A stretch of DNA of 62,943 bases, counting the filler, from Catajapyx aquilonaris (Eukaryota): assembly GCA_000934665.2 (NCBI GenBank). It is 2 parts of 2 records of this genome, joined end to end, with 100 filler letters (N's around TTAATTAATTAA, not from the genome) between each part and the next. Parts side by side here need not be neighbours in the genome. Positions count along the whole stretch, not along the records: positions 1 to 31,422 come from JYFJ02004532.1; 1 more part is not named here. The stretch is one strand, 5' to 3'. Of this stretch, positions 1,011-31,388 are shown piece by piece. Below the pieces are notes generated by a model, which was not told the origin of the DNA, did not search any database, and was given only the letters and a program-made list of their open reading frames with translations. Within the stretch, counting starts at the first letter, position 1. Every line of letters starts with the position of its first letter. Made by a program: the position numbers and the translations under genes.

Positions 1011-1093
1011 AGTAGCGGCGACTGGTGAGGCATGAATAGCGCCTAATCACATCTGTGTCTCTGCTGGTGATCGGAATGCACCCTCACAAGATG
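1011..1093 (+). promoter_or_regulatory. Conserved upstream cassette, array unit 1 (YY1 site degraded to AAGATGGGT)
   Basis: AGTAGCGGCGACT..AATAGCGCCTA..GGTGATCGGAATGCACCC..CAAGATGG; same motif order as the other units. Confidence 0.65.
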
Positions 1094-1159
1094 GGTGAAA
1101 TAGCTGACCTGATTGGGATTCACCTTTGTTTGATTAGCTGACCGGCAATTTGCAGGACC

Positions 1160-1720
1160 ATGTCACAGGTAGTGTGGATAAAGCAGGAAGAGTGGGAGGA
1201 GGAGGAGGAAGATGAAGAAGGAACAGTTACACTCCAGGGGACCTTGAAGGAGGAGACACCGTCTTTTTTTGATGGTGACTCTCCTCTCATAGAAGACACA
1301 ATTCCAGTGGTAAAACAGGAGCCAGAGGATGAGGAGGAGGACGAAGAAATGGTGGTGGCCATGTCCAAGGAGGCTGAAGATGAAGATGACCCTTTGGCAG
1401 TTACATCCAGAAGGATTCAGCAGGCATGTAAGATCTTAGGTGTATCACAAGATTGTTTATCTATAATTTCACAGTCTTAGGTGCCAGATAGAGGTTGTCG
1501 ACAGTCACCGTCAATGTCAAAGGAAGCGATACGAAAGAGGGAAGCCAGAGCCAGAGAGAGTGTAGAAGAGAAAAGAGCAAGACTGGAACAGCAAGCGAGA
1601 AGGCAAGCTGCTGCAGTAAAGCGGGAAACTCCAGAACAAAGGAAGGAACGACTTGAACGAAAGGCAGAGAGGCGGAGAGAAAGGATCAGTCGGAAAACAC
1701 ACGAGCAGAGTTTGGTTTGA
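1160..1720 (+). pseudogene. Array unit 1: acidic DDPL exon plus truncated STPR-repeat exon (probable pseudogene or truncated gene)
   Basis: Exons 1160-1423 and 1481-1720. The donor is GC where paralogs have GT. About 2.3 23-aa repeats (ESVEEKRARL.., ETPEQRKERL..) end at a premature TGA. Decayed zinc-finger sequence follows at about 1890-2540. Confidence 0.65.
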
Positions 1721-2125
1721 ATACAAAGGTGAGCTCAGATTATTGCAAGCGTATGTGATTGAGAATCCCACTGAGACCAAAAAAAAAAAACAAGCAATGA
1801 CGGAGATTAATGCAACAAGTTAGTGACCTATTTATTGTAGGTAAGCCCAAGTATTTGACCCAGAAATAGTTAAAAAGACTTCTAGAATGGGATCTGAAAA
1901 TTCATGTGCATGTTCATTCAAGTGAAAAGTCATTTTTGTTGTCAAGTTTCACTAATGAAATTTGAGTTGGGGAGTGGTTTGAGAACTCACTTGAAAATAT
2001 GGACTGGTGAGACAACTTACACTTGCCCAATTTGACCAAAACAGTTTGGCAATGAAAGTCATTTGAAATTTCAAATGTGTAGGCATGTATGGGGCTAACC
2101 ATATACTTTCAAATATAGCTTGATA

Positions 2126-2350
2126 GGGGGAGGTGCGGTGGCCGAGATGGTAAAGTCTCGCCTTGCTGAGTGATAGGTCCCAGGTTCGATCCCTGCCTGG
2201 GAGTTCCCTTTCACCTGCATCAGGAGGGCCTCTGACCCACACCTTGAAGGTGTCTGGCAACCTAGCCTGAGCCTGGGGAACAGCATATGACCCCTTTTCA
2301 GACATTGCACTTGCACCCTCGTTCCCGCCCCAACAATCCTTACCCAATGA
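2126..2350 (+). mobile_element. tRNA-derived SINE inserted in decayed zinc-finger sequence
   Basis: A box TGGCCGAGATGG at 2139-2150 and B box GGTTCGATCCC at 2183-2193, followed by a GC-rich body. The 3' end is approximate. Confidence 0.7.
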
Positions 2351-3035
2351 CCTTGATTTCCCTGCACCGGAGTTTGAAGTAGAAAAAGCAGATAATTGTC
2401 TGAGAAAAAATGGTGGTTTCCCACCCCCCTAAGAGAGCCAGGCTCTCTCACGGGGTTTTTTAAAAATTGCCTGAAGGAGTTTATTCAATGTGGCAATTTT
2501 AAAAAGCCACATGTGTGAAAGCACATATGGGAAAAATGAACCTATATGTAAGAGATGTCCTGGAAAAATGTACAATGGGAGCTTATTATTTTCACCTGTG
2601 AATACACATTAAGAAACGTCTGCTTTGACTGATTTCCAGAGAGTTTACAAAGACATTATTACAGAAGTGCATAGAAGAGGTAGCCTATAGTTTTTTATAA
2701 AGTGTGTGTCAGACTCACTTTTACTTTTTTACTACCACCCCTACTTGCAATTCTTTCATTTATTTCAGATTACCTGCACCATTTTATTGACCAGTTTTTC
2801 ACAAGGCAAACTGCAATAGCCCTCAATTAATTTCACAATCATTTTTCACATATTTGGTACTGTACGGGATGCCCAATCTCTATAAACTAGGCAACCCGTT
2901 GCCAAAATTTGCATGGAGACACGTGTCTGTAATCGGGGGTGATAACGGCACAATAATAATTAATTATCTTTCATCCAAATCCATCAGAACTAGTATTGAA
3001 TGGTGAAGAGCTATTAGTTCTTCGCAACGTTTAGG

Positions 3036-3122
3036 AGTAGCGGCGATTGTTCATGCAGAAATAGCGCTTAATACCATCTGTTTCTCTGTTGGTGATCGGA
3101 ATGCACCCTCACAAGATGGCCG
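3036..3122 (+). promoter_or_regulatory. Conserved upstream cassette, unit 2
   Basis: AGTAGCGGCGA..AATAGCGCTTA..GGTGATCGGAATGCACCC..AAGATGGCCG. Confidence 0.7.
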
Positions 3123-3190
3123 ACCAAACTGACCTGATTGGGATTCATCTTTGTTTGATTAGCTGATCTGCAGTTAATATTTACAGGACC

Positions 3191-3803
3191 ATGTCACATG
3201 TAGTCTGGATAAAACAGGAAGAGGCGGAGGAAGGGCCAGAGGAAGAAGAAGGAACAGTCACACTCCAGGGGACCTTGAAGGAGGAGACACCGTCTTGCTT
3301 TGATGGTGACTCTCCTCTCATACAAGACACTATTCCAGTGGTAAAACAGGAGCCAGAGGAGGAGGAGGAGGAAGAAATGGTGGTGGCCATGTCCAAGGAG
3401 GCTGAAGATGAAGATGACCCTTTGGCAGTTACATCCAGAAGGATTAAGCCGGTACGCAATCTGCTGTAGTCAGATGAAGACGTGGCTCTCAGGTGTATGA
3501 CAAGCTGCAATTATCCAATAAGTTATAACAATTTCACATACATGTTTTATTACCCAGGTTCAAAGTAGTGGGAGTGGCCACAATAAGCTACTGGTAATGT
3601 CGAACGAGGCGATACGAAAGAGGGAAGCCAGAGCCAGAGAGAGTGTAGAAGAGAGGAGAGCAAGACTGAAACAGCAGGCAAGAAGGCAAGCTGCTGCAAG
3701 AATGCGAGAAACCCCAGAACAAAGGATGGCACGACTTGAACGGGTGGCAGAGAGACGGAGAAAAAGGAGCAGTCGGAAAACACCTGAGGAGTCTTTGGTT
3801 TGA
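3191..3803 (+). CDS. Array unit 2: acidic DDPL exon plus truncated STPR-repeat exon
   Basis: Exons 3191-3451 (CCG|GTACGC) and 3558-3803 (CAG|GTT), phase 0. It carries the same premature TGA as unit 1 and may be a pseudogene. Confidence 0.65.
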
Positions 3804-4556: not shown

Positions 4557-4679
4557 AGTAGCGGCGACCTGTGAGGTTGGAATAGCGTTTAAACACTTGC
4601 CTCACTCTGGTTGTCATGCGAACGGTGATGCGAACGCGTCACAATTAGGAAAAAAAGAAAAAGAAATTAAAGATGGCCG
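4557..4679 (+). promoter_or_regulatory. Conserved upstream cassette, unit 3
   Basis: AGTAGCGGCGAC..AATAGCGTTTA..A-tract..AAGATGGCCG. Putative 5'UTR exon donor GAAGG|GTGAGT at 4840. Confidence 0.7.
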
Positions 4680-5068
4680 ACTGACGTTCGATCCCGTTCG
4701 TTGTGTGGAAGAATCCGAGGTTCCAGTGAATGGAACTCATCTTGAACCGGTTCGATTGCTGATTCTATCCTCGCGCCTTCAATCGGAGCTTTGCCCTTCT
4801 CGTTCTGGTCGAGGCGGAGGGTGACAAGGACGAGGAAGGGTGAGTGGAGGAGGACAAAAAGAGAGAAGAACGTCTCTTCGGCAGACAAAAGTTCCAGTCG
4901 GAAAACGAGACATTCAAAAATGTTCGATCAAAATGGGGATGTGTTTGACTAATTTGATTTATTTCATGCATTTCCTTGCTTACATCTAAGAGAAATGTTC
5001 ATCTGCAGCTGTCGTGATTGCGCCTTATTGACATGAGTACATGACCTGCACTTTTGTCTTGCAGGACC

Positions 5069-8000
5069 ATGGCGCAGGCAGTGTGGATTAAGATGGAAGA
5101 GGTGGAGGAAGGGGAAGAGGAAGATGGAACAATCACAGTTGAGGAGACGTGGCAGATTCCCTTGAAGGAGGAGACCCCATCTTGCTTCGATGGTGGCTCG
5201 ACTCTCATTGAAGACACGCTTCGTGAGATCAAAGAGGAGGAAGCGGAGGAGGTGGTGGAAGAGGAGGAGGAGGAGGAAGAGATGACACTGACCTTGCCTG
5301 ATGTGGTTGAATATGAGCATGACCCTTTATCAGTTAGACCCAGAAGGATTAATCGGGTATGTCATCTGTCGATATAGCAATGTAATTTACATATGGTTAC
5401 ATCAGTTTTACTTGCACCGCCGTGTACTCAACCTTGATGCTAGTCCACATCTACATTGATATACTTTGCAGATTTTGTTAGGATAAAGTGTAGGTCTAAT
5501 TAGGCAGGTTAGCCACTGGAGATGTGTCCACTGGCTATTGCTTTATTGGTGTCACTATACATAGCAAGTGTGTGGGAGTACAGTGTGTTCAACCACTTTG
5601 CAGGAATGGTCTTATACTCTTTTCACATGTTCTTTCTTCACTTTCCATTCAGTTTTATGCACATGTCTTGACACTTGCCACTCAGAGCAATCCCACATGA
5701 TATTTGTTCAAATACCTAAGAAGAAGAAGAAATCCTTATTAATAAAAAGAGGACACAGTTTGTATAGGTGGCACACCCTTCGACCCTACATCATCGTTTT
5801 GTTTACAGACTCCAAGTCAACGGAAATCTGCCAAACGTACCCCTGGAACCGCTCGCTTTTCAAGTTTCCGTGGAAATGCCTTCACACAACAATTGGAGAA
5901 TGACTGTCCTTTGTTCATTGTTTACGGCCATTTGTTACATGAGGGCATTTCCATGGAAACTTGAAAAGTGGGTGTTTCCAGGAGTAGGCTACATTCAGCA
6001 GATTTCCGTTGACTAGAAGTTGGTAAAGAAAATTATTATGATTCAAGTAAGGGCATGCCGCCTATACATATGTATGTCACGTTTTGTATTGCCAAAGCAA
6101 CCGTTGTTGACAACCAAAGAGTTCTGCTGTAATAGAAACGACTCGGGGTGAAATGTGGAGGCAGGCAGCCATCTTTACATGTGTCATAATGTTGGACTTA
6201 ATTGTTGTCCCAGTAGCTAGACAACTGTCGCAGAATGTTTAGATTCAGTAGTTGTTATGTAGGAGCCCAAACCAGTAGTTTAGTTCCGGCTCAGTACTAA
6301 AGCCGCTTTAACATGTGAGTGACTTGATGAGAGAAGTCTTCGCCGAGCGATAACATCAATGAGTAACCAATATTGTTTGAGGTGAAAGTGACAATCAATT
6401 TTCGCCTCAAACAACACTGGTTACTCAGGTTGCTCAGCGATGTTACCACTCTTTTCGGACCCCACCATATTTTAATTTTTATTCATTATTATATAATACT
6501 TTCCAATGTAGTGACTATATACAATCATTCTTTGAACAATGCCTAAAAGGATCGCTCATTCAAAATAAACCTGCACTTCCTGTTATATACTGTAAAAAAA
6601 TCGCAAAAGTTCATTGTAATTATCATTTTAATGCATTTTTTTCCTTGGGATCCAAAAAGACCCCACGGCACGGTTCCAGGGTTAAAAATCAGTAGCAATA
6701 TTGAGCAGGTTTGAACATGTATCATTAGCTGGGACTTTACTGAGGCACACTTGACTACTGCCAGCTCTTTAGCAGCAGAAGAACCTGCGGAAAAAATTAA
6801 AATGTAACAACTGTGGAGATGTCCCTGACAGGGGACGCCGGGCACATCTGGGTTAATACGATGATGATATCTAGCAGTCACAGTGTGTTACCAGACAACT
6901 TTGATGACTTTGTAATAAAGGGTGCTTTTTAATGACCACAGCCTGGAAAGCTCTGAAATGGAAATTGATGAACTGTAATTTTCGTTACAGGCAGTGCAAG
7001 AAAAAAATGATGAAGTGATGACAGGAACCCAGGGATTTAGGATCATTAGAACCCATGACGGAATGGGCCAGGAATTACTTGTTCCTGAAATTGATTTAGA
7101 AGTTTACATGCGAAACCGTCCTAGAGAGAGATATTTTCCTTGCCATATCTGCCAGGAAAAGTTCAACCAGGAAAGCCATTTACTAAAACACAAGAGAATT
7201 CACACTACCAAAAAAAAACATACTTGCAGGGTGTGCAAAAGTACATTTGTGACAGCAAATAGTTTTAAAAACCATAAGAAATTGCATGTAGGGCAGAAGA
7301 CATATGAATGTGAGGTGTGCGAGAAAAAGTTTCTTCTTGAAAAGCATTTGCGAAATCACCTGCTTAGATATAAAAGAGGGAAGCCATTGATTTGTGAGGT
7401 GTGCCAGAAGAAGGTTCACATAGCATATGATTTGAAACTTCACATGCGAAGTCATACAGGAGAGAAGCCATTTGTTTGTGAGGTGTGCCAGAAAATGTTT
7501 CGGTCAGCATATGATTTGAAAATCCACGTGCGAAATCATACGGGAGAGAGACCATTTCAATGTGAGGTGTGCCAGAAAAGGTTTCCGACAGCATATCTTA
7601 GGAAAAGGCACACGCATGTTCATCTGGATGTTCCTTCAGGAGAAAAACCATTTGTTTGTGAGGTGTGCCAGAAAACTTTTCGCTTAGCATACGAGCTGAA
7701 AATTCACATGAGATATCATACAGGAGAGAGACCATTTCAATGCGAGGTGTGCCAGAAAACGTTTCGGGCAGCATACGATTTGAAAATCCACATGCGATAT
7801 CACACAGGAGAGAGACCATTTCAATGTGAGGTGTGCCAGAAAAGGTTTCCGACAGCATATCTTAGGAAAAGGCACACGCATGTTCATCTGGATGTGCCTT
7901 CAGGAGAAAAGCCATTCCGTTGTCAAGTATGTCAAAAGGAATTTCAGAATGCAAGTAGTTTCAGCACTCATAAGAAAATACACACTGCAGGCACACCAGT

Positions 8001-8808: not shown

Positions 8809-8933
8809 AGTAGCGGCGACTGTTCAGGCATGAATAGCGCTTGATCACGTCCTTTTCTCTGTGGCGGTGATGGGAATGCACCCACAAAAAATGAAGGAGA
8901 AAAAAAAAAAAAATAGAACGTCAAAGATGGCCG
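8809..8933 (+). promoter_or_regulatory. Conserved upstream cassette, unit 4
   Basis: AGTAGCGGCGACT..AATAGCGCTT..GGTGATGGGAATGCACCC..A-tract..AAGATGGCCG. Confidence 0.75.
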
Positions 8934-9265: not shown

Positions 9266-11749
9266 ATGTCGCAGGCAGTGTGGATTAAGACGGAAGCGAC
9301 AGAGGAAGGGGAAGAGGAAGATGGAACAATCACAGCGGAGGAGACCTGGCCATCGCATTTCAAAGAGGAAATAGCCCCGGAATGGTTGGATAATGACGCT
9401 ACTCTCGTAGAAGACACCCTCTGTGAGATCAAGACCGAGCCGGCGGAAGAAGAGGAGGAGATGGAGGTGGCCATGTACCGGCAGGATGAAGATGACCCTT
9501 TGGCAGTTGCCTCTGGAAGGATTAGTCAGGTATGTCATCTGCTGATACCATGATGGAACTTACGATTACACCATTTTATAGGCGGCCCGCCCTTACTGCG
9601 ACTGTACGTCATCCTTTTGTTTACCGACTCCTAGTGAACGGAAATCTGCCAAACGCACCTCTGAAACCCCCCACTTTTCAAGTGCAACCTCACGCAACAA
9701 TATGGGTGAACAGTGCCAACAAAAAAGAACACTACTGTTCACTCCCATTGTTGCATGAGGACATCTCCAGGGAAACTTGTAAAGTAGGGGTTTCCAGAGG
9801 TGCGTTCGGCAGATTTCCGTTGACTAAGAGTCGGTAAACAAAAGGATGGCGTAAGGGCTTCCACGAATAGCCGTGTACTCGCGCTTTATTCAGGTCCACA
9901 TCGACAGTGATATTTTTGCAGATTTTTTCCTGTTAAAGGCTGGCCTAATTAGGCAGGTTAGCCACTGGAGATGCCCACTATTGGTTGAGTAGGGATCTGC
10001 CTAGGTTTGGCTACCACTATTTCTGCTGTGTCCATGCTTCCACATCCGAGTCCACTCCTCCCTCTCATCAACATTCAACCCATATGCGCATGGATTTCTT
10101 TGAAACATTCTCAAGCAGTTGGAGTATTCCCGTACATGCATTGCAGCCTGTCAATCTTACTATGGGAATATTTAAAGTGCTGAATATTAAGCTAATACTA
10201 ATGATGGTGGGAGAGGGGCTGCCAAGATTCCAAAACTTTCCTCTTATGGTCATGTGGAAAGGTTCTATATACTTTACCCACATGAGGTGTAGCATGGAAT
10301 TCGGAAGATCGGGGTAATTGGAGGGGGATCATTACCCGGAAGAATTTAAATGGATTGTGAAAATGTTCAAAGCTTTCAAATCATCCAAGTGTTCATAATT
10401 ATGTGGGGATGGGAAAATTCTCAACATCTTGCTACAACATATGTTATTTTCTTTTATATGAGAATGTCTGGCATTCACACTGTCTGGGGCATTTCGGGAC
10501 GACTTTGGCGACTTTGTAATAAAGGGTGCTTTGTAATGACTGTGGCTGGAAAGGTGTGCAAGAGCAACTCGTTAAAATGGAAATTGATGAACTGTAATTC
10601 CCATTACAGGCAGTGCAAGAGAAAGATGATGAAGTCTGTGTGATGACAGGAACACAGGAATCCTGGATCATCGGAGCAAATAATTTTAAAAACCACAAGC
10701 AATTGCATGTAGGGCAGAAGACATATGAATGTGAGGTGTGCGAGAAAAAGTTTCTTCTTGAAAAGCATTTGCAAAATCACCTGCAAAGATATAGAGGAAA
10801 GGAGCCATTGATTTGTGAGGTATGCCAGAAGAAGGTTCACATAGCATATGATTTGAAACTTCACATGCAAAGTCATACAGGAGAGAAGCCATTTGTTTGT
10901 GAGGTGTGCCAGAAAACGTTTCGTGTAGCTTATGATTTGAAAATCCACATGCGAAATCATACGGGAGAGAGACCATTTCAATGTGAGGTGTGCCAGAAAA
11001 GGTTTCCGACAGCATATCTTAGGAAAAGGCACATGGATGTTCATCGCGATGTTCCAGCAGAAGAAAGACCATTTGTTTGTGAGGTGTGCCAGAAAACATT
11101 TCAGAAAGAATACGATCTAAAAATTCACATGAGATATCATACGGGAGAGAGACCATTTCAATGTGAGGTGTGCCAAAAAACGTTTCATAAAGCATATGAT
11201 CTGAAAATTCACATGCATATTCATTCAGGAGAAAAACCATTCCGTTGTCAAGTTTGTCAAAAGGAATTTCAGAATGCAAGTAGTTTCAGCACTCATAAGA
11301 AAATACACACTGCAGGCACACCAGTCACTTGCCAAATATGCCAACAGCAATTGAAATGCGGAAGGAGTTTGAGCAGTCACATGAAAATTCACAGTGGGGA
11401 GAGACCACACACATGCAAAATTTGTGACATGCAGTTCAGGCATAAAGGTAACATGACAATTCATATGCGAACACACACAGGGGAGAAACCGTACACCTGC
11501 AAATATTGCCATAAGACGTTTAGTCAATCATGTTCTGTGAAGACACACATGCGAATGCACACGGGGGAGAAACCGTACACCTGCAAATATTGCCTGAAGA
11601 AGTTCAGTCAGCCAAGTTCTATTAAGATACACATGCAAGTCCACACAGGAGAGAAACCATACTCCTGCAAATATTGCGAGAAAAAGTTTAGTTATTCAAG
11701 TAGTATGAATGTACACATGCGGATCCACACAGACAAAGAACCAACCTAG
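9266..11749 (+). CDS. Array unit 4: acidic-domain C2H2 zinc-finger protein (12 fingers, one atypical)
   Basis: Exons 9266-9529 (CAG|GTATGT) and 10610-11749, phase 0. The finger exon is a close paralog of that in unit 3. Confidence 0.9.
9577..9858. mobile_element. MITE family A, second copy
   Basis: Starts with TATAGGCGGCCCGCCCTT and has the same inverted arms as 5763-6066. Confidence 0.8.
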
Positions 11750-12099: not shown

Positions 12100-12209
12100 A
12101 GTAGCTGCGACTAGCGAGATGGGGAATAGCGCTTAAACGCATCCTGCTCTTTGGTGGCGATGGGAATGCACCCCCCAAAAAATTAAAATGAGTCAATAAA
12201 AGATGGCCG
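12100..12209 (+). promoter_or_regulatory. Conserved upstream cassette, unit 5
   Basis: AGTAGCTGCGACT..AATAGCGCTTA..GGTGGCGATGGGAATGCACCC..AAGATGGCCG. Confidence 0.75.
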
Positions 12210-14167: not shown

Positions 14168-14380
14168 GTGCTCCAGGAAAATTGCAACTCATTAAAAACA
14201 ACAATCTGTGAATGTACATAGAGGCATCTATTTTGTTGTAATGGTTACCACAAAGACACGATGATTTACATAAAGTATAATTATATCATCAAACCTTTGA
14301 CTGTTTAAACTACCTGAAGTGTGACCCGAATTAAATTAATTTTGTGTCTAGTCGAATTAACAGCTCAGAGCAGCTTCACC

Positions 14381-14488
14381 AGTAGCGGCGACTCTTAATG
14401 ATGGAATAGCGTTTAAACTCATCCTTCTCTCAGGCGGTGATAGGAATGCACCACTTTAAAAAAAAGAACAATCAAACAAAGATGGCCG
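14381..14488 (+). promoter_or_regulatory. Conserved upstream cassette, unit 6
   Basis: AGTAGCGGCGACT..AATAGCGTTTA..CATCCTTCTCT..GGTGATAGGAATGCACC..AAGATGGCCG. Confidence 0.75.
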
Positions 14489-14600: not shown

Positions 14601-15310
14601 ATGTCACAGGAAGTGTGGATAAAGCAGGAGGAGGGGAAGGAGGAGGAAGAAGAAGGAACAATCACAGTGGAGGAGACCGTCGAGGAGGACACCCCATCTT
14701 GCTTTCATAATGACTCTACGCATATGGAAGACACTATTCATGTGGTCAAGCAGGAGCCAGAGGAGGAAGAGATGGTGACCATGCCAGAGGTAGTTGAAGA
14801 TGGAGATGACCCTTTGGCAGTTGCGTCCAGAAGGATTAGTTGGGTATGTAATCTGCTGAAGTGTATGACAAGTTGCCATTACTTTCAACAATCTGTTTTA
14901 TTATGTAGGTGCCACAACCAGGGAGTAGCCAACACCTACTTGCAAAGGACATGATCCGAAAGAGACTAGCCAGAGCCAACGAGACTGTAGAACAGAAACG
15001 AGCAAGACTGCAAAAGCAAGCAGAAAGGCAAGCAGCTGCAAGAAGGCGAGAGACTCCAGAACAGAGGACAGCACGACGTGAACGAGATGTGGAGAGGTGG
15101 AGGCAGAGGATCGGTCGGGAAACACCTGAGCAGACTTTGGTTCGGCTACAAAGACATGCAGAGGCTCGTGCGAGAATGCGTGCTAGAGAATCACAAGACA
15201 AAAAAAGGCAAAGACAGGAGCTTGATGCAGCGAGGCATGCATTTTTGAGGCAACGTCGTAAACAAGCTGGAGGACTTGAACCGGCAGAAATGGCTTCCGA
15301 AAGAATATGA
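14601..15310 (+). CDS. Array unit 6: acidic domain + four STPR-like repeats, no intact fingers
   Basis: Exons 14601-14843 and 14909-15310 (65-nt GT-AG intron), phase 0. ETVEQ/ETPEQ/ETPEQ/ESQDK at 23-aa spacing. Decayed finger DNA at about 15303-15450. Confidence 0.8.
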
Positions 15311-15791: not shown

Positions 15792-15900
15792 AGTAGCTGC
15801 GACTGGTCAGATGGAAATAGCGGTTTAAAAAAATCGCATCCTTCTCTACCTCTGTGGTGGCGATAGGAATGCACCCAAGGGCGTGAATCCAAGATGGCCG
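15792..15900 (+). promoter_or_regulatory. Conserved upstream cassette, unit 7
   Basis: AGTAGCTGCGACT..AATAGCG..CATCCTTCTCT..GGTGGCGATAGGAATGCACCC..AAGATGGCCG. Confidence 0.75.
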
Positions 15901-21000: not shown

Positions 21001-21144
21001 ACATCATACGGTTTGAAAGTTCATTTGCGAATTCATACAGGTGAAAAACCATATCAATGTGAGGTGTGCGAGAAAACATTCCGAGTGACAAGTCATTTGC
21101 AAAGCCACATGAAAATTCATGCTGAAGAGAAATCCTATTGTTAG
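18011..21144 (+). CDS. Array unit 8: acidic-domain C2H2 zinc-finger protein (8 fingers)
   Basis: Exons 18011-18259 (GAG|GTAAAA) and 20377-21144 (TTCCAG|GCA), phase 0. Confidence 0.88.
18780..20005. mobile_element. Mariner-derived non-autonomous foldback element(s), two tandem copies
   Basis: TA|CGAGGGC...GCCCTCG|TA ends. The arms translate to degenerate transposase C-terminus (SDFHLFRSMK; KEWFLEGLERL..WQCI) on both strands. The right arm occurs twice (about 19200-19368 and 19835-20005). Confidence 0.8.
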
Positions 21145-21803: not shown

Positions 21804-21923
21804 AGTAGCTGCGACTCTTGAGGCATGGATAGCGCATAAGCCCGTCCTTGCAACCTGGTGCGGGGGTAGGAACGCACCCTCTTTTGCATTAAAAAAAAAG
21901 AGAAGCGAAATCAAAGATGGCCG
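21804..21923 (+). promoter_or_regulatory. Conserved upstream cassette, unit 9
   Basis: AGTAGCTGCGACT..GATAGCGCATA..GGAACGCACCC..A-tract..AAGATGGCCG. Confidence 0.7.
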
Positions 21924-22168: not shown

Positions 22169-24495
22169 ATGTCTTTGATCCTGAGGATAAAGAAGGAAGA
22201 GGGGAAGGAAGAAGAAGATGAGGAGGACATCACAACAGAGGAGACCTGGCAGATGGCCGTGAAGGAGGAGACCCCTTCTTATTCCCTTGATGATGGCGCT
22301 ACTCTCACAGAAGACATGCTTCGTGAGATCAAGAAGGAGGAAGCTGAGGAGGAGATGGTGGCAACCACGTCCAGGGTCGTTGAAGAGGAAGATGACCCTT
22401 TAGGTGTTGGTTGCATCAGGATTTATGGGGTATGCCATCAGCTGAAAATCTGCCCGAGCCTTCCTTTTGGTCTGTTGAACCCCCACTTCTTGTTTGACCT
22501 TTGACACTAAACAAATGTAATTGGAAATGTCAGTCCACATAATATGTATTTCTATTGCATGATGCATCATATATGCAGAACTTATGAGGGTCCCTTGGGG
22601 GTGATATTTTCTTGGACTGTGAAGGAGGAAGCACGGCACTTGCATTGGGCTACCACAGTGGCAGGTTATGCTTCCTGCAGGGGGATTGCAAGCCAGGAAT
22701 CATCAATAAGAAAGCAGGAGGAAGTGTCCAGCATGGAGGATGGCTTGTGTGTCGTATGCAGCCCCCTGCAACTCCCGCGATGCGGCAGCGGACTTAGTTT
22801 TTTCCAGCCCGGATTTGGCGCTTCAGATGCTACACTGTTGGCTGCTCCGTCCTCAGGTGCAGTCGGGCAGATGAGGCCTGAGGGCATAGAAGGAGCATTT
22901 GTATTGATGGTTTGGGTTGGTTCACAAGTCGTCTGCACCAGGTGCACCTGGGGACCGAGTAGCCTACGGTATAGTGCCAGCAGCGCCAAATCCGGGCTGG
23001 CGGAGACTCTCTAAGTCTGCTACTGTCACCATAAAGCTACGATTGGAGTTGCAGGGGACTGGTTGTATGGTCTTTAAGGCTACTCTGCTCCAAGTATTTA
23101 TATATGAGCAGCCATGTCCGTCCTAGCACATAAGAATGCCTTTCCCACTTGTCAACAATGAGTTGCTTTTTGTGCTAGAGGTGTACCTCACTTCAAGTGC
23201 TTTGCTTTACTGTACTTTTAATTATGTCCTTTTTAATTATTGTTGGGAATGAGATGGTTTATAAAACTTTGCAAATTTTTCCTGTTTGAATCATGGAGAC
23301 AGATTGTGTCTATTGGCATAGACTGTCGAATAGCATCGTTATCATCGTTAATGATATAATTGTCTCTCCTTTGGGGAGGCGGAGCGGCACTGCGGTAACG
23401 TATTGTTAGTCTCAGCAATCTCCATAATAATACCCTACGTCTACTGCAGTTCTTGCCAAAAGAATGGAAAAGAGGCCTGATCTGATGCAATTCCCCCTTC
23501 AGCCTGTTCAAGTCAGTATGAAGAAAGCAGTCCAGAAGAAAAGGATCACTACACGCCAGCGATTTGATTGCCAAGTGTGCCAGAAATCGCTTGGAACCAA
23601 ATATGGTTTGGAACTTCACATGCGAAACCATACGGGAGAGAAGCCCTTTTCCTGCCACATCTGCCAGAAGAGATTTATTGCAACAGGTCATTTGAAAAGC
23701 CACATGAGAAATCACACTGCAGAGAGACCATATTCATGTGAGGTGTGCCATAAAAAGTATTTTGCATCATATGAGTTGAAAATTCACATGCGAATTCATG
23801 CAGGGGAGAACCGATTTCAATGTGAGGTGTGTCAAAAAAAGTTTCGTGCCGCATATGATTTGAAAATTCACATGCTAAATCATACAAAGGAGAGACCCTT
23901 TCAATGTGAGGTGTGCCAAAAACGGTGTAAGGTTGCACATAAGTTGAAAATCCACATGCGAATTCATACAGGAGAGAAACCGTTTCAATGTGAGGTGTGC
24001 CAGAAAAGATTTAATAGTTCGCATTCTTTGAAAATTCACATGCGAATTCATACTGGGGAGAAACCATTTCATTGTGGGGTGTGCCAGAAGAAATTTCATT
24101 GGAAAACTTCTTTGGAATCCCATTTGATAACTCACACTGCGAAGGAGCAATTCAGTTGTACATATTGTCGGAAGAAATTTACTAACTCAAGTAGTATGAA
24201 GGCACACATGTGCATTCACACGAGTGAAAAAACGCTTCATTGCAAATATTGCCAAAAGGGGTTTAGTGACTCAAGTCGTATGAAGAGACATTTGCTAATT
24301 CACACTGGCGAAAAACCATTTAGTTGCAAATATTGCCAGATGATGTTCAATCAGTCAAGTAGTATGAAGTTACATTTACGCATTCACACAGGCGAAAAAC
24401 CATTTAGTTGCAAATATTGCCCGATGAGGTTCAGTCAGTCAAGTAGTATGAAGAGACATAGTATGCAAAAACACGCAGGTGAAAACCCCGGTTAG
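22169..24495 (+). CDS. Array unit 9: acidic-domain C2H2 zinc-finger protein (11 fingers)
   Basis: Exons 22169-22429 and 23503-24495, phase 0. Confidence 0.88.
22787..23021. mobile_element. Small GC-rich TIR element (MITE-like)
   Basis: Perfect 19-bp inverted repeat CCAGCCCGGATTTGGCGCT plus outer GACTTAG/CTAAGTC. Absent from the homologous intron of unit 11. Confidence 0.65.
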
Positions 24496-24959: not shown

Positions 24960-25072
24960 AGTAGCGGCGACTGGCGATGAGGGAATAGCGCTTAAGCACA
25001 TCCTTCTCTGTTGTGGTGGCGATGGGAATGCGCCCTCATTTGCATAAAAAATCATCGCATCAAAGATGGCCG
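24960..25072 (+). promoter_or_regulatory. Conserved upstream cassette, unit 10
   Basis: AGTAGCGGCGACT..AATAGCGCTTA..CATCCTTCTCT..GGTGGCGATGGGAATGCGCCC..AAGATGGCCG. Confidence 0.75.
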
Positions 25073-25309
25073 ACGAAGAGTGTCCGTCGTGAGGAGACGA
25101 GAAGAGTGCGTCCGTTGCCTCTCTTCCCTCGCCTGGAACTTGGTAGGTTGAGCACATTGCATCCGCCCCACGCAAAGCATGACATGGTGTCACTTCAGCC
25201 ATCCAAAGCATGACCACGGAATTAGATCTGAAGGAAAAGAGAACAATGGTAGCTATAGGCCTGTGCCCTACTCCTAACATGAGCTGGTTGCATTGTGTAT
25301 TGCAGGACC

Positions 25310-28300
25310 ATGGCCTTGCTGCCCATGAGAGTCAAGGAAGAAGAAGGGCTTGATGGAGAAGAGGAGGACATCACAGTGGAGGAGACCTGGCAGATTCCCT
25401 TGAAGGAGGAGACCCCTTCTTGCTTCGATGACGGCTCTACTCTCATTGAAGACACCCTCCGTGAGGTCAAGAAGGAGGAGGAAGAGGAGGAGATGGTGGT
25501 GGACATGCCTGGGGTGGTTGGAGATGAAGATGACCCTTTATCTGTTGGTTCTGGAAGGATTAGTGGGGTATGCCATCTGCTTAAAATGTGAAGTAGGCCT
25601 ACCGTAATGTTGCCGTATGTGTGCTTCAGTCATGTGATGGATGGGGAGTATTACAAGAATTTTCCTTGCTCATTGGGGGAAGGGAGTGTTTGGCCCAGAT
25701 ATGTTAGCCCAGCTTTGGTGACCTACAGTTGAATCTGGATATATAACGGACTTCAAGGGACCGCGGGAAAAGCAGTCTGTTATACCCTAGTTCTGTTATG
25801 GCCAAATCGCCAATTTTGTAGTGAATACTCGAAGTTGTCTGCTTTCCATATGACTAGAATGCACACTACTACATGCTGATTAATGAAACTAAACATGCAA
25901 AATTAGCTCACCCATCACTTAGGCAGGACCAAAAAAAATCTGTAATTTTCTTCCACTGTCTCGTTCTTGCTAAATATACCAGAAAAAGGATGATTTTGAC
26001 CTTTTAGCTAAAGCGTTAGATCAGTGACAAATCTACTCCAGTGTGCAATGCTTTCCTCACGTGGGAAAAGAAGTTGAGTAATCAAAAACAGCACATTTTC
26101 CCACCGAGTGGCCAAGAAATGGTCTGTTATAGCCGAGGTGAGGTGAAAATGAGTTACCGCAGCACCACTTCGCCTCCTTATTAACTGTAATAAATTATTT
26201 TTATTACATGCAGAATATTGTCACTTTTCAGATTCTTTCTTGGATGGTAAACTGGACTTTTGGTATTTTATTTCTTAATCTCCCATTAACTAAATGCAGT
26301 TTGAGCCAAGCTAGGACAACATTTGTTGAAATGAACCAAATTTCATGCTAAAGGATGCTGATGTGAAAATTATTTACTATTAGTGTAATCATGAATTATT
26401 ATCAAATGTTGCATATTTTACCTGTTGAGTGATGTAAACAGATTGCTACTACAGTTGAATCCGGATATAACAGCCTCAGTTATAACGAACTTTCGGTTAT
26501 AACAGACTCAAAAGCCCAGTCCCAGCATACTTACATAAAGCCCCATGTATTTTTTTTACTCCTGATAGGCTATAGGAGACTCCTTTTCACCTCATCTCAG
26601 CTATGACAGACATTTCTTGGCCCTTTGGTGGGAAAATATGCTGCTTACGATTACTTAGCTTCCTTTCCCATGCCAGGAAAGCATTGCACATTGGAGAGGG
26701 GGGTGATATTCCATATGTGAGTGATATAAGCGCTCATTGACACTTGCAGAAAAGATCAAAATAATTATTTTTCAGGTAGCGTTTAAGTTATTTAGCAAAA
26801 AGGGAGAGAGCAAACTAGAAATACTCTTTTTTTTTGTCCTGCATAAGTTGTGGTGAGCTAATTTTGCAATTTTGTGGCTAGTTTCATTAATCAGTGTGCA
26901 GTAGTGCTCATTATTTGCATTTGGCAAGCAGAAAACTATTGTTGAAAAATTGGCGATTTGGCTATAACAGATGTCAGTTATTTCCTGTAATATGAATATC
27001 CCACCAAAAACATTTCTGTAAAAAAAGGCCAAGTTCTCCTGACTGCTGTCAAAAGTGGCGAGATCTGAAATACAGCCAAGTTCAACGTCGTTGTCAATTA
27101 CTGGCATTCTCAAATTATTCAACCTAAACCACTAACTTTGTTTTTCCAGGTCGACCTTAAGTTTAATCATCAAAAAATTTTAATGTAATTTCTCCTGATG
27201 TCACTTGACCATTGCTCTTAAAACAGTGAAACAGTTGTAGAATTCAACAATACCTCAGACATGAGCAATGACCAAGTGACATCAGGAGAAATGCCATTAA
27301 AATTTTTTGATGATTAAACTTAAGGTCGACCTGGAAAAATAAAATTAGTGGTTTAGGTTGAAGAATTTGAGAATGCCAGTAATGAGTACGACGTTGAACT
27401 TGGCCGTATTTCAGATCTCGCCACTTTTGACGGCCAAGCAGTCAGGAGAACTTGGCCTTTTTTTACAGAAAGTTTTTGGTGGGAACTCACCTCTTTTTGT
27501 AGGCAGGAGTGTAGGATAATTATGATAGCTCGGGGCCGGGCCCTACGGTTGGGCGTGGAAGCAATTGTCCGTATGTACAACTCTATCTTTTCTTCTGATT
27601 AGGTATGATTTTCTTCTGCTTTCTCATATTACGCTTCCTTTTTTTCTGTTCTGGTTGTGCGAATTGGACATCTGCTACACCTGATCCCATAGCCCATTCG
27701 CGATCCTTAACCACTTCTGTCGATGCCTTATTAGCCCTTTTGAGTATGGATAAGTCTGGTCGGTAAATAGATCTCAATCTATCGTACTCCAGAATAGCTG
27801 ACTCTTGAGCCTTGATGTCAGTAAAGGAGGCATTGATGAGATGCACTTTTAACTCTGGAAAGAGCCACGTAGGCTTGACCGCACGAGAAGACAGAGGAAC
27901 CAATATCGATGAGTACATTAGTGAGACTCAGCCTTGGCTCTTGTGTATGATAATTGCAAACGACAAAATGACGTGAGTTGTGTCGGGTAAAGGTGGTCCG
28001 GCAGTGCGGCGAGAACTTGGTGGGGGCACTGCCGTTGCCCCCTAATCTCTGTCGCACTGTGTGATGTGAGTGTGCTACAAATTCTGCAAGAGGTTTTGCT
28101 ATAAGCCACAAGGGGTGCCTTCTAAATGACCAAAACACATGCTGAAACCTTTCCTACATCCACCCTCCAATGGTAATTGATATGCTGCAATTCACTTTTC
28201 AGGTAGTGCAAAAGGATGACGATGAAGTATATGTGAAGGAAGGAGTTCAGAAGGAAAAGATCACTAGACCTCCTGATGGAAGCAAGCAATTTGACTGCCA

Positions 28301-29042
28301 AGTGTGCCAGAAGAAGCTTACTACAGCTTATAGGTTGAAAATTCACATGCGAATCCATACAGGTGAGAAACCATATAGTTGTGAGGTATGCCGGATGAAA
28401 TTTAGTGAGCCAAGGAGCTTGAAAAGTCACATGCGAATTCATACAGGTGAGAAACCATATAGTTGTGCGATGTGCCAGGAAAAATTTAGTGCATCAGCTA
28501 ATATGAGAAATCACATGCGAATTCATACAGGTGAGAAACCATTTCAGTGTGAGGTGTGCCAGAAGAAATTTATTACATCAAGTGCCTTGAAAAAGCACAT
28601 GCGGGTTCATACAGGAGACAAACCATTCACTTGTGAGGTGTGCCAGAATCAGTTTACTGCACAGTCTAGTTTGTATGTTCACATGCGAATTCATACAGAT
28701 GAGAAACCATTTCAGTGTGAGGTGTGCCAGGAAAAATTTAGTGAATCAGGTAATTTGAGAAATCACATGCGAATTCACACAGGCGAAAAACTATTTAGTT
28801 GCAAAATTTGCCATAAAGAATTTCGACATTCCAGTCATGTGAACAAACACATGCGAACTCACACAGTCGAAATACCACGTGGTTGCAAAATTTGCCATAA
28901 ACAATTTCGACATTCCAGTCGCATGCGCAGACACATGCGAACTCACAAAGGCGAAAAAACACTTAGTTGCGAAATTTGCCATAAAGAATACCGATATTCC
29001 AGTCATCTGAGCAACCACATGCGAAAGCAGCACACTGGTTAA
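25310..29042 (+). CDS. Array unit 10: acidic-domain C2H2 zinc-finger protein (9 fingers, C-terminally truncated)
   Basis: Exons 25310-25567 and 28203-29042, phase 0. TAA falls in a TG*K linker, and two decayed fingers follow. Confidence 0.85.
25726..26975. mobile_element. Two truncated, oppositely oriented copies of a Tc1/pogo-type TIR element
   Basis: TA|CAGTTGAATC(T/C)GGATATA occurs at 25726 and 26452. 25790-25940 is the reverse complement of 26825-26972, and 26040-26150 of 26585-26695. Confidence 0.7.
26999..27484. mobile_element. Foldback/MITE with about 220-bp inverted arms
   Basis: TCCCACCAAAAAC...GTTTTTGGTGGGA termini. The arms are near-perfect and flank a spacer of about 45 bp. Confidence 0.88.
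27583..27990 (-). mobile_element. Helitron-type PIF1 helicase C-terminal fragment (frameshifted)
   Basis: Across frameshifts it reads FAIIIHKSQG-LSLTNVLIDIGSSVFSCGQAYVALSRVK..VHLIN..IKAQESAILEYDRLRSIYRPDL, matching PIF1 motifs V/VI. Confidence 0.85.
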
Positions 29043-29691
29043 AAACGATTCAGTTGCCAATATTGTCAGCAGGAGTTAAGTGATGCATCAAGTGGCATGA
29101 AGAAACATTTATGTACGCATGCACGCACAGGTTATAAACCATTTAGTTGAAAGTATTTTCAGTAGGAGTTAGTGACTCATGCGGTATGAATAGACATATG
29201 CGAAGACATGCAACATGCTCAGATGTAATCATATATTTTCTGAAAGAGATGTAAAATGGCATCCCATTGGAAAGACCATCTGTGCATGACACCCAGAAGC
29301 ATATGCTTTGTTGTAATTTACATGAAGAGTGTATGAAGACATGACTATTGTCTATAAAGTATGTTAATCTCATCTTGGCATTTTTACTCCCTTTGTCCAA
29401 CAGGAACTAGCTGATATAGATGGCTCTTGAGTCCTAGAAAAGCCATCATTGACAGGAAGGGTGAGGACACTCCGGGATTTTAATCGCCCCAATCCCAACT
29501 TCCCGAGTGACCACTATTGGGCTTGCCCTGGTCATGCGCTTCCTATACTAACTATATTTGAATCAATATTACCAGGATTTACCATAGAAATCCAAGTGTC
29601 TCGCACAATATGTCATAATCAGGCACATGTCCACGGTTTTTGAGCTAAACGTATCAAATGTAATAACTAGCGGCTATCGCTGAGCTGGACA

Positions 29692-29813
29692 AGTAGCGGC
29701 GACTCTTGGCGTTGCAATCGCGCTTAGACGCATCCTTCTCTCTCAGGTGGCGATGGGAATGCACCCACAAATGAATGGGAAGAGAAAAAAGAAAAAGAAA
29801 TCAAAGATGGCCG
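29692..29813 (+). promoter_or_regulatory. Conserved upstream cassette, unit 11
   Basis: AGTAGCGGCGACT..AATCGCGCTTA..CATCCTTCTCT..GGTGGCGATGGGAATGCACCC..A-tract..AAGATGGCCG. Confidence 0.75.
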
Positions 29814-30011
29814 AAGAAGAACTTCTCTTGTGAAGACACGAGGAGGAGGGTCCTGCGGCTTGAATTTCCCGAAGATTACAACTTGGATTCAGACATAGCA
29901 AGGTGGGCACTTGGTTGACCTTTGACCACCACGTCACAGAGAAAATGTTCCTCCTGTGCAGCTGATTAGTGTGCTGCTTCATGTGCTGATGTTGCTGTGC
30001 ATTGCAGGGCC

Positions 30012-31388
30012 ATGTCGTTGAGGGTCAAGAAGGAGGAAGGACTGGAAGATGATGGGGAGGTGGCAGTGGAGGAGATGGCACAGGTGCACGTGAAAGAAGA
30101 GATCCTACTATCCTTTGAAAATGACGAGACAATGGGTGCTACACCCGTGGAGGTCAAAGAGGAGCCACCGGAGGAGGAGATGATGGTGGCCATGCCTGGT
30201 GCTGTTGAAGAGGGAGGTGACCCTTTGGCCGGAGGTTCCGGAAGGACTAGTGGGGTATGTCGTCTGGTGAACATCTGATATGTAATGTTACAGCATATTT
30301 GCACTGTGTTGTACTTCCATCTTCATTAAGCAAGCTGGAGAAATTGTACAGCATAGAGGATGACTTGTGTTGTACGCAGCCCCCTGCGACTCCCATGATA
30401 CAGAAGCGGACCCTGAATAATGAAAATTGATATGATGCAATTCCCTTTTCAGCAGCTGCAAGAGAAAGGTCTTGAAGTCAGTGTGGAGAAAGCAGTCCAG
30501 AAGAAAAAGAGCACTAGATCTCATGACGGAAGCCAGCGATTTGACTGCCAAGTGTGCCAGAAATCCCTTGCCACCAAATATGGTTTGGATCTTCACATGA
30601 GAAGCCATACAGGAGAAAAGCCATTTTCATGCAAATTATGCGATAAGAAATATATTGCGAGACTTAGTTTGAAAAGCCACATGAGAGTGCACACGACAGA
30701 GAGACCACATTCATGTGAGGTGTGCCAGAAAAAGTTTTTTACATCATATGAGTTGAAAATTCACATGCGAAATCATACAGGAGAGAAGCCATTTAAATGT
30801 GAGGTGTGCCAAAGACGGTGTAATGTTGCTCGTGAGTTGAAGATTCACATGCGAATTCATACAGGCGAGAAGCCATTTAAATGTGAGGTGTGCCAAAAAC
30901 GGTGTAATGTTGCTCGTGAGTTGCAGATTCACATGCGAATTCATACTGGAGAGAGACCATTTCAATGTGAGGTGTGCCAGAAAAGGTTTAATATTGCATA
31001 TGATTTGAAAATTCACATGCGAATTCATACTGGGGAGAAACCATTTCAATGTGAGGTGTGCCAGAAGAAATTTCATGTGAAAGCTTATTTGCAAGCCCAT
31101 TCGAAAACTCACACTGCAGAAAAGCCATTTAGTTGCAAATATTGTCAGAAGACATTTACTTATTCAAGTAGTGTGAAGAAACACTTGCGAATTCACACAG
31201 GCGAAAAAAAGTTTAATTGCAATTATTGCCAAAAGGAGTTTAGTGACTCAGGTGGTATGAAGAAACATTTACGAATTCACACAGGCGAAAAACCATTTAG
31301 TTGCAAATATTGCCCGATGATGTTCAGTCAGTCAGGTAGTATGAAGAGACATAATAGGCGAATTCACGCAGGTGAAAAACCTGTTTAG
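30012..31388 (+). CDS. Array unit 11: acidic-domain C2H2 zinc-finger protein (10 fingers)
   Basis: Exons 30012-30254 and 30453(or 30456; CAGCAG acceptor)-31388, phase 0. Confidence 0.9.

Follow-up and report, generated by a model that had tools for sequence, protein, structure and literature searches.

What does the short acidic exon at the head of each of a row of genes in Catajapyx aquilonaris (GCA_000934665.2) encode, and what might it do for the DNA-binding exon that follows it? In the window, by which we mean the whole stretch of 62,943 nucleotides analysed, this first exon occurs as 11 head-to-tail paralogues on the + strand. When 1609 six-frame peptides of the window were searched with its profile, exactly 11 matched (96 to 130 bits); these lie on the + strand from 1142 to 30275, and no further copy turned up elsewhere in the window. 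Together with the ATG-to-donor lengths, this count agrees with the first-pass annotation, which had described 11 head-to-tail phase-0 exons of 77 to 96 codons; the interval given there opens at 1011, where the conserved noncoding element upstream of g1 begins, and closes at 31388 with the stop codon of the g11 finger exon, the last in the row. A gene has three parts: the upstream element (found in 10 of the 11), a first coding exon of 77 to 96 codons, and a phase-0 DNA-binding exon. They are listed here, with acidic-exon codons counted from ATG to donor.

1011..1082 (+) g1 upstream noncoding element, AGTAGCGGCGA ... GGAATGCACC, probable promoter or 5' UTR exon
1160..1423 (+) g1 acidic exon, 88 codons, three psi-K-x-E motifs, GC donor instead of GT
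1481..1720 (+) g1 STPR exon, two full 23-residue repeats, third cut by TGA, no fingers
3036..3107 (+) g2 conserved upstream element
3191..3451 (+) g2 acidic exon, 87 codons
3558..3803 (+) g2 STPR exon, premature TGA as in g1, no fingers
4557..4684 (+) g3 conserved upstream element
5069..5356 (+) g3 acidic exon, 96 codons
6991..8454 (+) g3 finger exon, 14 canonical C2H2 fingers
8809..8882 (+) g4 conserved upstream element
9266..9529 (+) g4 acidic exon, 88 codons
10610..11749 (+) g4 finger exon, 11 fingers, starting inside a finger truncated relative to g3
12100..12172 (+) g5 conserved upstream element
12451..12702 (+) g5 acidic exon, 84 codons
13277..14167 (+) g5 hybrid exon, four 23-residue STPR repeats (13355-13630), then five C2H2 fingers
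14381..14452 (+) g6 conserved upstream element
14601..14843 (+) g6 acidic exon, 81 codons
14909..15310 (+) g6 STPR exon, four 23-residue repeats, no fingers
15792..15875 (+) g7 conserved upstream element
15984..16214 (+) g7 acidic exon, 77 codons; the following 147-nt intron is in frame and stop-free
16362..17471 (+) g7 finger exon, 12 fingers
18011..18259 (+) g8 acidic exon, 83 codons; the sole gene for which no upstream element was found
20377..21144 (+) g8 finger exon, 8 fingers
21804..21878 (+) g9 conserved upstream element
22169..22429 (+) g9 acidic exon, 87 codons
23503..24495 (+) g9 finger exon, 11 fingers
24960..25034 (+) g10 conserved upstream element
25310..25567 (+) g10 acidic exon, 86 codons
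28203..29042 (+) g10 finger exon, 9 fingers
29692..29765 (+) g11 conserved upstream element
30012..30254 (+) g11 acidic exon, 81 codons
30453..31388 (+) g11 finger exon, 10 fingers

The upstream element, AGTAGCKGCGA, matches 11 times against 0.48 expected, and these matches mark 10 genes. All 11 acidic exons have an AG acceptor 4 to 13 nt 5' of the ATG and end in phase 0, at G/GTA in 10 copies and at G/GCA in g1, and a phase-0 acceptor lies ahead of every second exon. From these signals and the shared phase, exon 1 is presumably spliced to exon 2. A ttk-type BTB gene neighbours the cluster, in agreement with an arthropod origin.

One exon family is thus attached to two unrelated DNA-binding modules: the second exon is a C2H2 array only in seven genes, STPR only in three (g1, g2, and g6), and both in g5. 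The earlier proposal that a single exon carries the whole DNA-binding array holds for g3, g4, g5, and g7 to g11 and fails for g1, g2, and g6, downstream of which our search found neither a finger nor a finger remnant; nor is the finger design uniform, as had been assumed, since an STPR exon present in four of the 11 genes had been missed and three genes have no finger at all. The STPR assignment rests on PF21107, which scores 39.0 bits for g5 and 28.9 bits for g6 (cutoff, 27), and on an in-register match to FMBP-1 (PDB 5d23; E value, 1.5e-4 over 93 residues). STPR is described as 23-residue repeats with Glu1, Thr/Ser2, and Arg9 (PMC4856987), and the repeats here are spaced by exactly 23 residues, have E1, T/S2, and R9, and contain 5 to 10 K+R each. 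Like Bombyx FMBP-1 and human ZNF821, g5 and g6 have four such repeats; unlike in those proteins, the STPR follows an acidic exon, precedes five fingers within the same exon in g5, and is cut after two repeats in g1 and g2, at a TGA where g5 and g6 read CGA/CGG. By exon 1 sequence, a branch with support of 93/91 has all four STPR genes on the same side.

The C2H2 arrays behind the other acidic exons and that of g5, eight in all, comprise 80 fingers. Entropy peaks at finger positions -2, -1, +3, and +6, and omega, which it had been suggested to compare between contact residues and scaffold, is about 2.5 for the former and 0.48 for the latter (Fisher P, 0.014 to 0.02), the contact-site value resting on 3.5 synonymous differences in finger pairs picked by scaffold similarity. 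Gene conversion is likely. In keeping with a modular gene, exon 1 and exon 2 have diverged discordantly, with dS of 0.68 versus 0.18 for g3-g4 and 0.94 versus 0.29 for g9-g11.

Are these working genes? The premature stop common to g1 and g2 and the GC donor of g1 mean that some copies may be decaying, and a truncated finger at the start of the g4 finger exon and the lack of a homologue among 1.84e9 representative proteins would also fit a recently amplified, largely nonfunctional array. As an account of the cluster as a whole, decay is nevertheless highly improbable, given that all 11 first exons and all eight finger exons are open, that zinc ligands are kept in 80 of 80 fingers, and that the splice sites and upstream element are conserved. 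Moreover, all 55 pairs of acidic exons give an NG86 omega below 1 (median, 0.38) despite dS values of 0.17 to 1.4. The acidic exon is protein coding and under purifying selection.

What is conserved does not appear to be a known domain. None of the 11 exons matches a Pfam family at an E value of ≤0.01 (hits at 0.02 to 0.17 are to unrelated families, far below their own cutoffs), in keeping with the first-pass statement that the exon is not KRAB, ZAD, BTB, or SCAN. Profile searches, of the kind that had been proposed, likewise returned no characterized domain or true relative: the best PDB E value was 0.27, no match, and the sole hit among the 1.84e9 representatives (E value, 4.3e-4) is an unrelated repeat protein. 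AlphaFold2 predicts no secondary structure (pLDDT, 59.8; pTM, 0.14), which does not bear out the earlier term "domain" in the sense of a folded unit. Because no known family matches and disorder is predicted, we read the acidic exon as a conserved, predicted disordered region with short motifs rather than a folded domain. This bears on the idea that it serves self-association, in the manner of ZAD, SCAN, or BTB, with a looping or insulator role instead of silencing. The N-terminal position is that of ZAD, a homodimerization domain (PMC7913770), in arthropod finger proteins. Yet with no predicted fold, no zinc-binding cysteine pattern, no Pfam match to any of the three, and strong like-charge repulsion, we regard such a role as very unlikely.

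The motifs themselves are clear. Across the 11 copies M1, K8, E10, K52, E62, E63, D77, P78, L79, and R85 are invariant and M64 nearly so (10 of 11), so that by column conservation the psi-K-x-E motifs, MVV patch, and DPL...R end noted at first pass are real. Psi-K-x-E is short, and glutamate-rich sequence raises its chance frequency. Even so, each exon has two or three strict [VILMF]-K-x-E matches against 0.12 to 0.33 expected, and 30 of 40 pooled lysines lie in the motif, where shuffling yields 2.27 on average and never as many as 30 in 2000 rounds. Shuffling corrects for composition and not for shared ancestry, the copies being paralogues rather than 11 independent trials. The SUMO-consensus motifs claimed earlier are therefore strongly overrepresented and conserved in position. 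The middle one is the least constant, its lysine missing in g5 and g6 and the strict pattern failing in g7. In all 11 copies the first and third motifs run on into acidic residues, which matches the NDSM as defined in PMC5727262, psi-K-x-E with downstream acidic residues. NDSM and synergy-control motifs are, however, single regulatory sites in diverse proteins, whereas here three sites are clustered in a dedicated, duplicated exon.

We tentatively favor, at somewhat less than even confidence, the reading that the acidic exon encodes a SUMO-dependent repressor module, portable among interchangeable DNA-binding exons. The same composition invites other explanations. Acidic and hydrophobic residues together are typical of acidic activation domains, and the exon is 27 to 35% D+E, is predicted to be disordered, and retains hydrophobic residues (W6 in 7 of 11 copies, besides M64 and L79). 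Conceivably, then, the acidic runs with W, MVV, and L contact coactivators, the psi-K-x-E sites being incidental or attenuators of the synergy-control type. The synergy-control SUMO consensus carries flanking prolines; at the third site a proline directly follows the E in 7 of 11 copies, and both flanking prolines are present in 4 of 11. An activator has no need of lysines held mostly at SUMO-consensus positions, K8 and K52 invariantly, and KRAB and FiNZ, the families that the exon parallels in structure, are repressive. Neither point is decisive, and an activating role is unlikely, though it is the strongest of the alternatives.

Charge alone might also be the point. With 22 to 33 D+E against 5 to 10 K+R, the exon could act as an intramolecular DNA mimic that folds onto the basic STPR or finger exon and tunes specificity or search kinetics with no cofactors. 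Acidic-tail autoinhibition is a known principle, the exon adjoins lysine- and arginine-rich STPR repeats, and it is paired with two unrelated modules that are both basic. On the other hand, charge leaves the invariant K-x-E, the D-P-L, and the motif register unexplained, and a pure polyanion should drift more than the median omega suggests, so we consider a mimic improbable.

The favored reading, a SUMO-dependent repressor module, has precedents. The first pass had pointed to KRAB and ZAD clusters, and the genes here do share with them, as with FiNZ, a tandem layout in which an exon for an N-terminal module precedes a rapidly varying finger exon. KRAB-ZNF genes of tetrapods resemble the cluster in the effector exon upstream of a single finger exon, tandem arrangement, contact-residue selection, and acidic N terminus, but KRAB is a folded, helical TRIM28-binding domain, whereas the acidic exon is predicted to be disordered and has no KRAB match in Pfam. 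ZAD-ZNF genes of insects share the arthropod setting, N-terminal module, and lineage-specific expansion of finger families; the ZAD, in contrast, is a zinc-coordinating dimerization fold, and the acidic exon has no PF07776 match, cysteine quartet, or predicted fold.

The closest precedent, unnamed at first pass, is the cyprinid FiNZ family, which has the same two-exon design and psi-K-x-E grammar but shows no homology by hhalign (probability, 0.6% over 10 columns). FiNZ-ZNF genes are described as having two coding exons, a short, glutamate-rich first one that resembles no known domain and a second one with the finger array, and their knockdown derepresses transposons (PMC10547256). Both families are large and tandem with diversifying fingers, and four cyprinid examples have three to four psi-K-x-E motifs in the first ~36 residues. 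FiNZ, however, is described as 28 residues long and cyprinid specific (PMC10547256), against 77 to 96 residues in an arthropod; it lacks the DPL...R tail and MVV patch, and no joining to STPR is reported for it. TRIM33 is the proposed FiNZ cofactor (PMC11603059), and neither of the two FiNZ papers (PMC10547256 and PMC11603059) mentions SUMO.

For the mechanism, Panoramix of the Drosophila piRNA pathway may serve as a model. Its disordered repressor domain is described as recruiting the heterochromatin factor Sov through SUMOylation and a short hydrophobic motif, both needed (10.1101/2021.07.27.453956). The profile search found no sequence relation, and Panoramix is tethered via RNA rather than binding DNA and uses an LxxLL motif that the acidic exon lacks. 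By eye, DPL corresponds to none of the corepressor motifs known to us (PxDLS, PxVxL, WRPW, and LxxLL), and only 4 of the 11 hydrophobic patches fit the canonical SIM-type I-x-V-V.

Putting this together, we suggest that the second exon would pick the DNA target, with fingers diversifying at base-contacting positions and STPR, a reported reader of the major groove of AT-rich DNA, as the other option. The acidic exon would be the portable effector: Ubc9 would SUMOylate the clustered consensus lysines directly, and the attached SUMO, acting with the DPL or hydrophobic motif, would bring in heterochromatin or corepressor machinery that bears SIMs. SUMOylation, repression, and the cofactors and targets, whether transposons or other sequences, are what we infer from motifs and parallels. 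In this arthropod genome the cluster is best explained as at least 11 lineage-restricted transcription factor genes in tandem; the whole reading, mechanism included, we put forward at just short of an even chance. The cluster appears to be a new counterpart, confined to one lineage, of the KRAB and FiNZ zinc finger families.

Between 1142 and 31388 on the + strand, stop-to-stop ORFs follow a recurring order, a short acidic ORF starting M-S-Q-x-V-W-I-K-Q-E-E and then a long ORF that encodes C2H2 fingers or is rich in arginine. When a profile of the acidic ORF was compared with all 1609 six-frame peptides of the window (about 32 to 49% G+C, mostly 36 to 47%, with 102 N), exactly 11 matches were returned (96 to 130 bits), all on the + strand and none outside the reported span of 1011 to 31388. 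All 11 acidic exons end in phase 0, at G/GTA[YA] in 10 genes and at G/GCATGT in the first gene, g1, where the donor at 1424-1425 is GC, not GT. From ATG to donor they measure 88, 87, 96, 88, 84, 81, 77, 83, 87, 86, and 81 codons in g1 to g11, respectively, which bears out the 11 head-to-tail phase-0 exons of 77 to 96 codons described in the first-pass annotation. All 11 downstream ORFs open at an acceptor in phase 0 that is preceded by a pyrimidine tract (1481, 3558, 6991, 10610, 13277, 14909, 16362, 20377, 23503, 28203, and 30453), leaving introns of 57 nt to 2.6 kb, and we infer from these signals and the phase that the acidic exon is spliced to the DNA-binding exon. The intron of g7 (16215-16361, 147 nt) keeps the reading frame and contains no stop; if retained, it would give a 495-residue protein from a single ORF, 15984-17468.

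Neither end of the cluster is certain, since the first of two N runs (31423-31466 and 31479-31522) lies 35 nt past the last finger exon and the window opens about 1 kb before g1. Just 5' of g1, at 686-970 on the + strand, a unit of about 69 nt recurs in tandem, and one frame reads as a repeated 23-residue peptide. Other coding features of the window are as follows.

33615-34364, + strand: cysteine-rich ORF with a spacing that, by eye, resembles peritrophin-A chitin-binding repeats; unrelated to the cluster
40098-41210, - strand: separate five-finger C2H2 gene; unrelated to the cluster
53398-54126 and 58720-59622, - strand: mamo/lola-like gene with a ttk-type BTB exon (at 59263-59622) and a C2H2 finger exon

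The BTB of the last gene is 80 to 87% identical to insect mamo, tramtrack, and lola-type proteins, and its best full-length score is with a tick protein. On the strength of this gene the window is assigned to an arthropod.

An AG acceptor lies 4 to 13 nt before the ATG of all 11 acidic ORFs (as ttgcag/GACC-ATG in 8), and a non-coding exon should therefore exist upstream. An element is present 148 to 457 nt, or about 140 to 460 nt, 5' of the ATG in 10 of the 11 genes, with blocks in the order AGTAGCKGCGA ... GAATAGCGC ... GGAATGCACC ... AAAGATGGCCGA. Its opening motif matches 11 times in the window against 0.48 expected.

1011 (1011-1082), + strand: upstream element, first copy
3036, + strand: start of upstream element
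4557, + strand: start of upstream element
8809, + strand: start of upstream element
12100, + strand: start of upstream element
14381, + strand: start of upstream element
15792, + strand: start of upstream element
21804, + strand: start of upstream element
24960, + strand: start of upstream element
29692, + strand: start of upstream element

No copy was found in front of g8. The first copy begins exactly where the first-pass annotation had the cluster start. The element is probably a shared core promoter or 5' UTR exon, and its AAAGATGGCCGA block resembles a YY1/Pho-type GCCAT core.

The first-pass annotation assigned one exon with the whole DNA-binding array to each of the 11 genes. A finger array in one exon is present in eight of them; g1, g2, and g6 have no fingers and carry STPR repeats instead, and no finger or linker remnant was found 3' of these three genes. 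The exons that bear STPR, recognized by the Pfam STPR family and by repeat spacing, are four.

1481-1720, + strand: STPR exon of g1
3558-3803, + strand: STPR exon of g2
13277-13720, + strand: STPR part of the g5 exon
14909-15310, + strand: STPR exon of g6

They are exons of the FMBP-1-type DNA-binding repeat and were overlooked at first. Scores against Pfam STPR (PF21107, cut-off 27) are 39.0 bits for g5, 28.9 for g6, 23.6 for g2, and 18.8 for g1, the latter two being below the cut-off with two full repeats each. The g5 exon also matches the FMBP-1 STPR structure 5d23 (E 1.5e-4) with 93 residues in register. Both g5 and g6 have four repeats at an exact 23-residue spacing with Glu1, Thr/Ser2, and Arg9, the repeat features given in PMC4856987, section 16. 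In g1 and g2, two full repeats are followed by TGA (1715-1720; 3798-3803) where g5 and g6 have CGA or CGG, and these may be decaying copies or encode a short isoform. The STPR of Bombyx FMBP-1 is described, for that protein only, as all-helical and as tracking the major groove of AT-rich DNA. In g5, the STPR is continuous with five fingers inside a single exon. When this exon was used as a protein query, generic finger proteins from many phyla were returned, nearly all aligned over the finger half only, so that the search told nothing of the family.

The eight finger arrays together hold 80 canonical C2H2 fingers (14, 11, 5, 12, 8, 11, 9, and 10), which are tandem C-x2-C-x12-H-x3-4-H units with TGEKP-type linkers; the four arrays scanned match Pfam zf-C2H2 at E 1e-23 to 1e-57. 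Across the 77 full 28-residue fingers the zinc ligands are invariant and entropy peaks at positions -2 (3.43 bits), -1 (3.60), +3 (2.98), and +6 (2.80); it is also high at unit position 1, before the first cysteine (3.07 bits). For 18 reciprocal-best finger pairs between genes, the contact codons (-1, +2, +3, and +6) gave dN 0.222 and dS 0.088, an omega of about 2.5 that includes just 3.5 synonymous differences and comes from pairs chosen by scaffold similarity, among which gene conversion is likely. The scaffold codons gave dN 0.079, dS 0.163, and omega 0.48 (Fisher p 0.014 to 0.02 on rounded counts). The finger exon of g4 begins, at 10610-10720, within a truncated finger (…NNFKNHKQLH), a deletion of about 1.5 fingers relative to g3.

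The two exons do not share one history. Divergence at synonymous sites differs between exon 1 and the finger exon, at dS 0.68 vs 0.18 for g3-g4 (5069-11749) and 0.94 vs 0.29 for g9-g11 (22169-31388), and in the exon 1 tree the partner of g4 is g7 and that of g8 is g11. These differences point to a reassortment of effector and DNA-binding exons through recombination or gene conversion. The same tree places the four STPR genes on one side of a branch (support 93/91, 90% of bootstrap trees), a grouping that one capture of STPR could explain. The best reason here to see an effector in this exon family, as opposed to an accessory to the fingers, is that it serves two DNA-binding modules unrelated to each other.

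What the acidic exon itself conserves is a set of short motifs. The 11-exon alignment has a mean column identity of 60%, with M1, K8, E10, K52, E62, E63, D77, P78, L79, and R85 invariant. Of 40 lysines, 30 fall within [VILMF]-K-x-E, against a shuffle mean of 2.27 and a count of 30 in none of 2000 shuffles; each exon has two or three such psi-K-x-E sites vs 0.12 to 0.33 expected, counts that pool paralogues with common ancestry. Because of this shared ancestry, the real motif signal in the alignment is that three sites were held in register while the remaining sequence drifted. The middle site is the least constant, g5 and g6 having no lysine there and g7 having P-K-E-E, which fails the strict pattern. 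After the first and third motifs, at least two acidic residues occur within six positions in 11 of 11 copies, as in the NDSM pattern, described as psi-K-x-E with a downstream acidic stretch (PMC5727262). Asp and Glu make up 27 to 35% of the residues of these exons. With such a composition, the exon might instead be an acidic activation domain whose SUMO sites act as attenuators, a possible but rather doubtful reading, or it might tune the basic DNA-binding exon as an electrostatic mimic of DNA, which we regard as unlikely.

Selection on the exon has been purifying, with a Nei-Gojobori omega below 1 in all 55 pairs (median 0.38, dS 0.17 to 1.4). Omega below 1 in every pair at dS up to 1.4 marks the exon as an old coding sequence under constraint; a decaying array, as an explanation of the cluster, is hardly credible beside these values. 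AlphaFold2 on the 11-row alignment returned pLDDT 59.8, pTM 0.14, and no secondary structure. The word domain used in the first-pass annotation does not suit a stretch predicted to be disordered and without a fold, and we read the acidic exon as a conserved disordered region bearing short linear motifs.

Its distinctness from known effector families, as suspected earlier, was upheld by the searches. None of the 11 exons matches KRAB (PF01352) at E ≤ 1; Pfam likewise gave no match to ZAD (PF07776), BTB (PF00651), or SCAN (PF02023), and the absence of secondary structure in the AlphaFold2 model applies to the last two. A ZAD-like pairing module seems very unlikely, and no conserved cysteine column exists in the alignment. 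Otherwise, Pfam gave no credible match for the 11 exons (a few rows at E 0.02 to 0.17 are unrelated families far under their cut-offs), NCBIfam gave none, and the best feature score in the ESM Atlas was 0.83, under the lead threshold of 0.9. A PDB profile search reached E 0.27 at best, with mitoribosomal and penton proteins as the hits, and these were rejected. Among 1.84e9 representative proteins, the lone match of the profile (E 4.3e-4) was to short stretches of a 1476-residue repeat protein and is spurious. A word-indexed protein search with residues 1 to 77 of the g7 read-through ORF gave 40 candidates, none significant. Thus, no credible match to a characterized domain emerged from Pfam, NCBIfam, the PDB, or the representative proteins. 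The searched protein set is rich in arthropod and fish finger proteins, yet the window's own genes were not among its hits; the lack of hits thus speaks for absence from annotated proteomes and not for absence from nature. The corepressor motifs PxDLS, PxVxL, WRPW, and LxxLL were compared by eye with DPL and the MVV patch and fit neither.

We favor the acidic exon as a SUMO-dependent repressor module, a reading that, taken as a whole chain, falls a little short of an even chance. The clustered NDSM-type sites would be modified directly by Ubc9, and the resulting poly-SUMO surface, together with the DPL or a hydrophobic motif, would bind SIM-bearing corepressors. Panoramix offers an arthropod model for such recruitment by SUMO plus a motif; its disordered repressor domain is reported to depend, for the recruitment of Sov, on SUMOylation and on a short hydrophobic motif. 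Targeting of transposons by the cluster proteins is plausible by analogy.

The nearest precedent is the FiNZ-ZNF family of cyprinids, in which a 28-residue glutamate-rich N-terminal exon without known homology precedes an exon with an NLS and fingers, as described by Wells et al. (PMC10547256). That account gives about 700 copies in zebrafish, derepression of transposons upon knock-down, and a mechanism stated as unknown; FiNZ is also reported to coimmunoprecipitate with TRIM33 (PMC11603059). Judged from splice signals, the FiNZ order of a glutamate-rich exon and then a finger-array exon holds in 8 of the 11 cluster genes. Four cyprinid proteins with FiNZ-type N termini have three or four psi-K-x-E sites in their first ~36 residues. 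Nevertheless, hhalign of the 11-exon profile against these four N termini gave a probability of 0.6% and E 0.095 over 10 columns, so that the two share a motif grammar and no detectable homology. Similarly, a Penaeus finger protein has paired VKEE/IKEE motifs like those of the acidic exon and scores just 5.4 bits against the profile; homology was rejected and the likeness is retained as motif resemblance. The cluster described in the first-pass annotation is real, a novel variation on the theme of effector exon plus finger array; it is richer than first described in having two DNA-binding modules, and its first exon, being disordered, is less of a domain.

More speculatively, and with low confidence, a cluster of SUMO sites within a first exon that is short, acidic, and disordered may be a portable silencer free of KRAB and TRIM28. 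Animals would have invented it repeatedly as finger families expand, here in an arthropod, among cyprinids in the form of FiNZ, and perhaps among decapods in finger genes with paired VKEE/IKEE motifs. It would work through direct Ubc9 modification and SIM-bearing SetDB1, Wde, or Sov-type machinery, and would be generic enough for exon shuffling onto STPR. The term SUMO does not occur in the text of Wells et al. (PMC10547256), and in a literature search on FiNZ, SUMO, and zebrafish none of the 10 papers listed, of 17 matching, was about FiNZ genes or connected FiNZ with SUMO. Given the psi-K-x-E sites of the cyprinid proteins and a FiNZ mechanism stated as unknown, the SUMO hypothesis is therefore testable in zebrafish too.

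Most of the thousands of arthropod and mollusc finger genes are described as having no recognized effector domain, their mode of action being an open question (PMC10547256). The Catajapyx cluster is a compact natural experiment on this point, with a single conserved effector exon on two unrelated DNA-binding modules, and the exon offers an explicit, mutable motif hypothesis in its three consensus lysines and DPL. If true, it would account for how the targets of expanding finger families are silenced in lineages without TRIM28.
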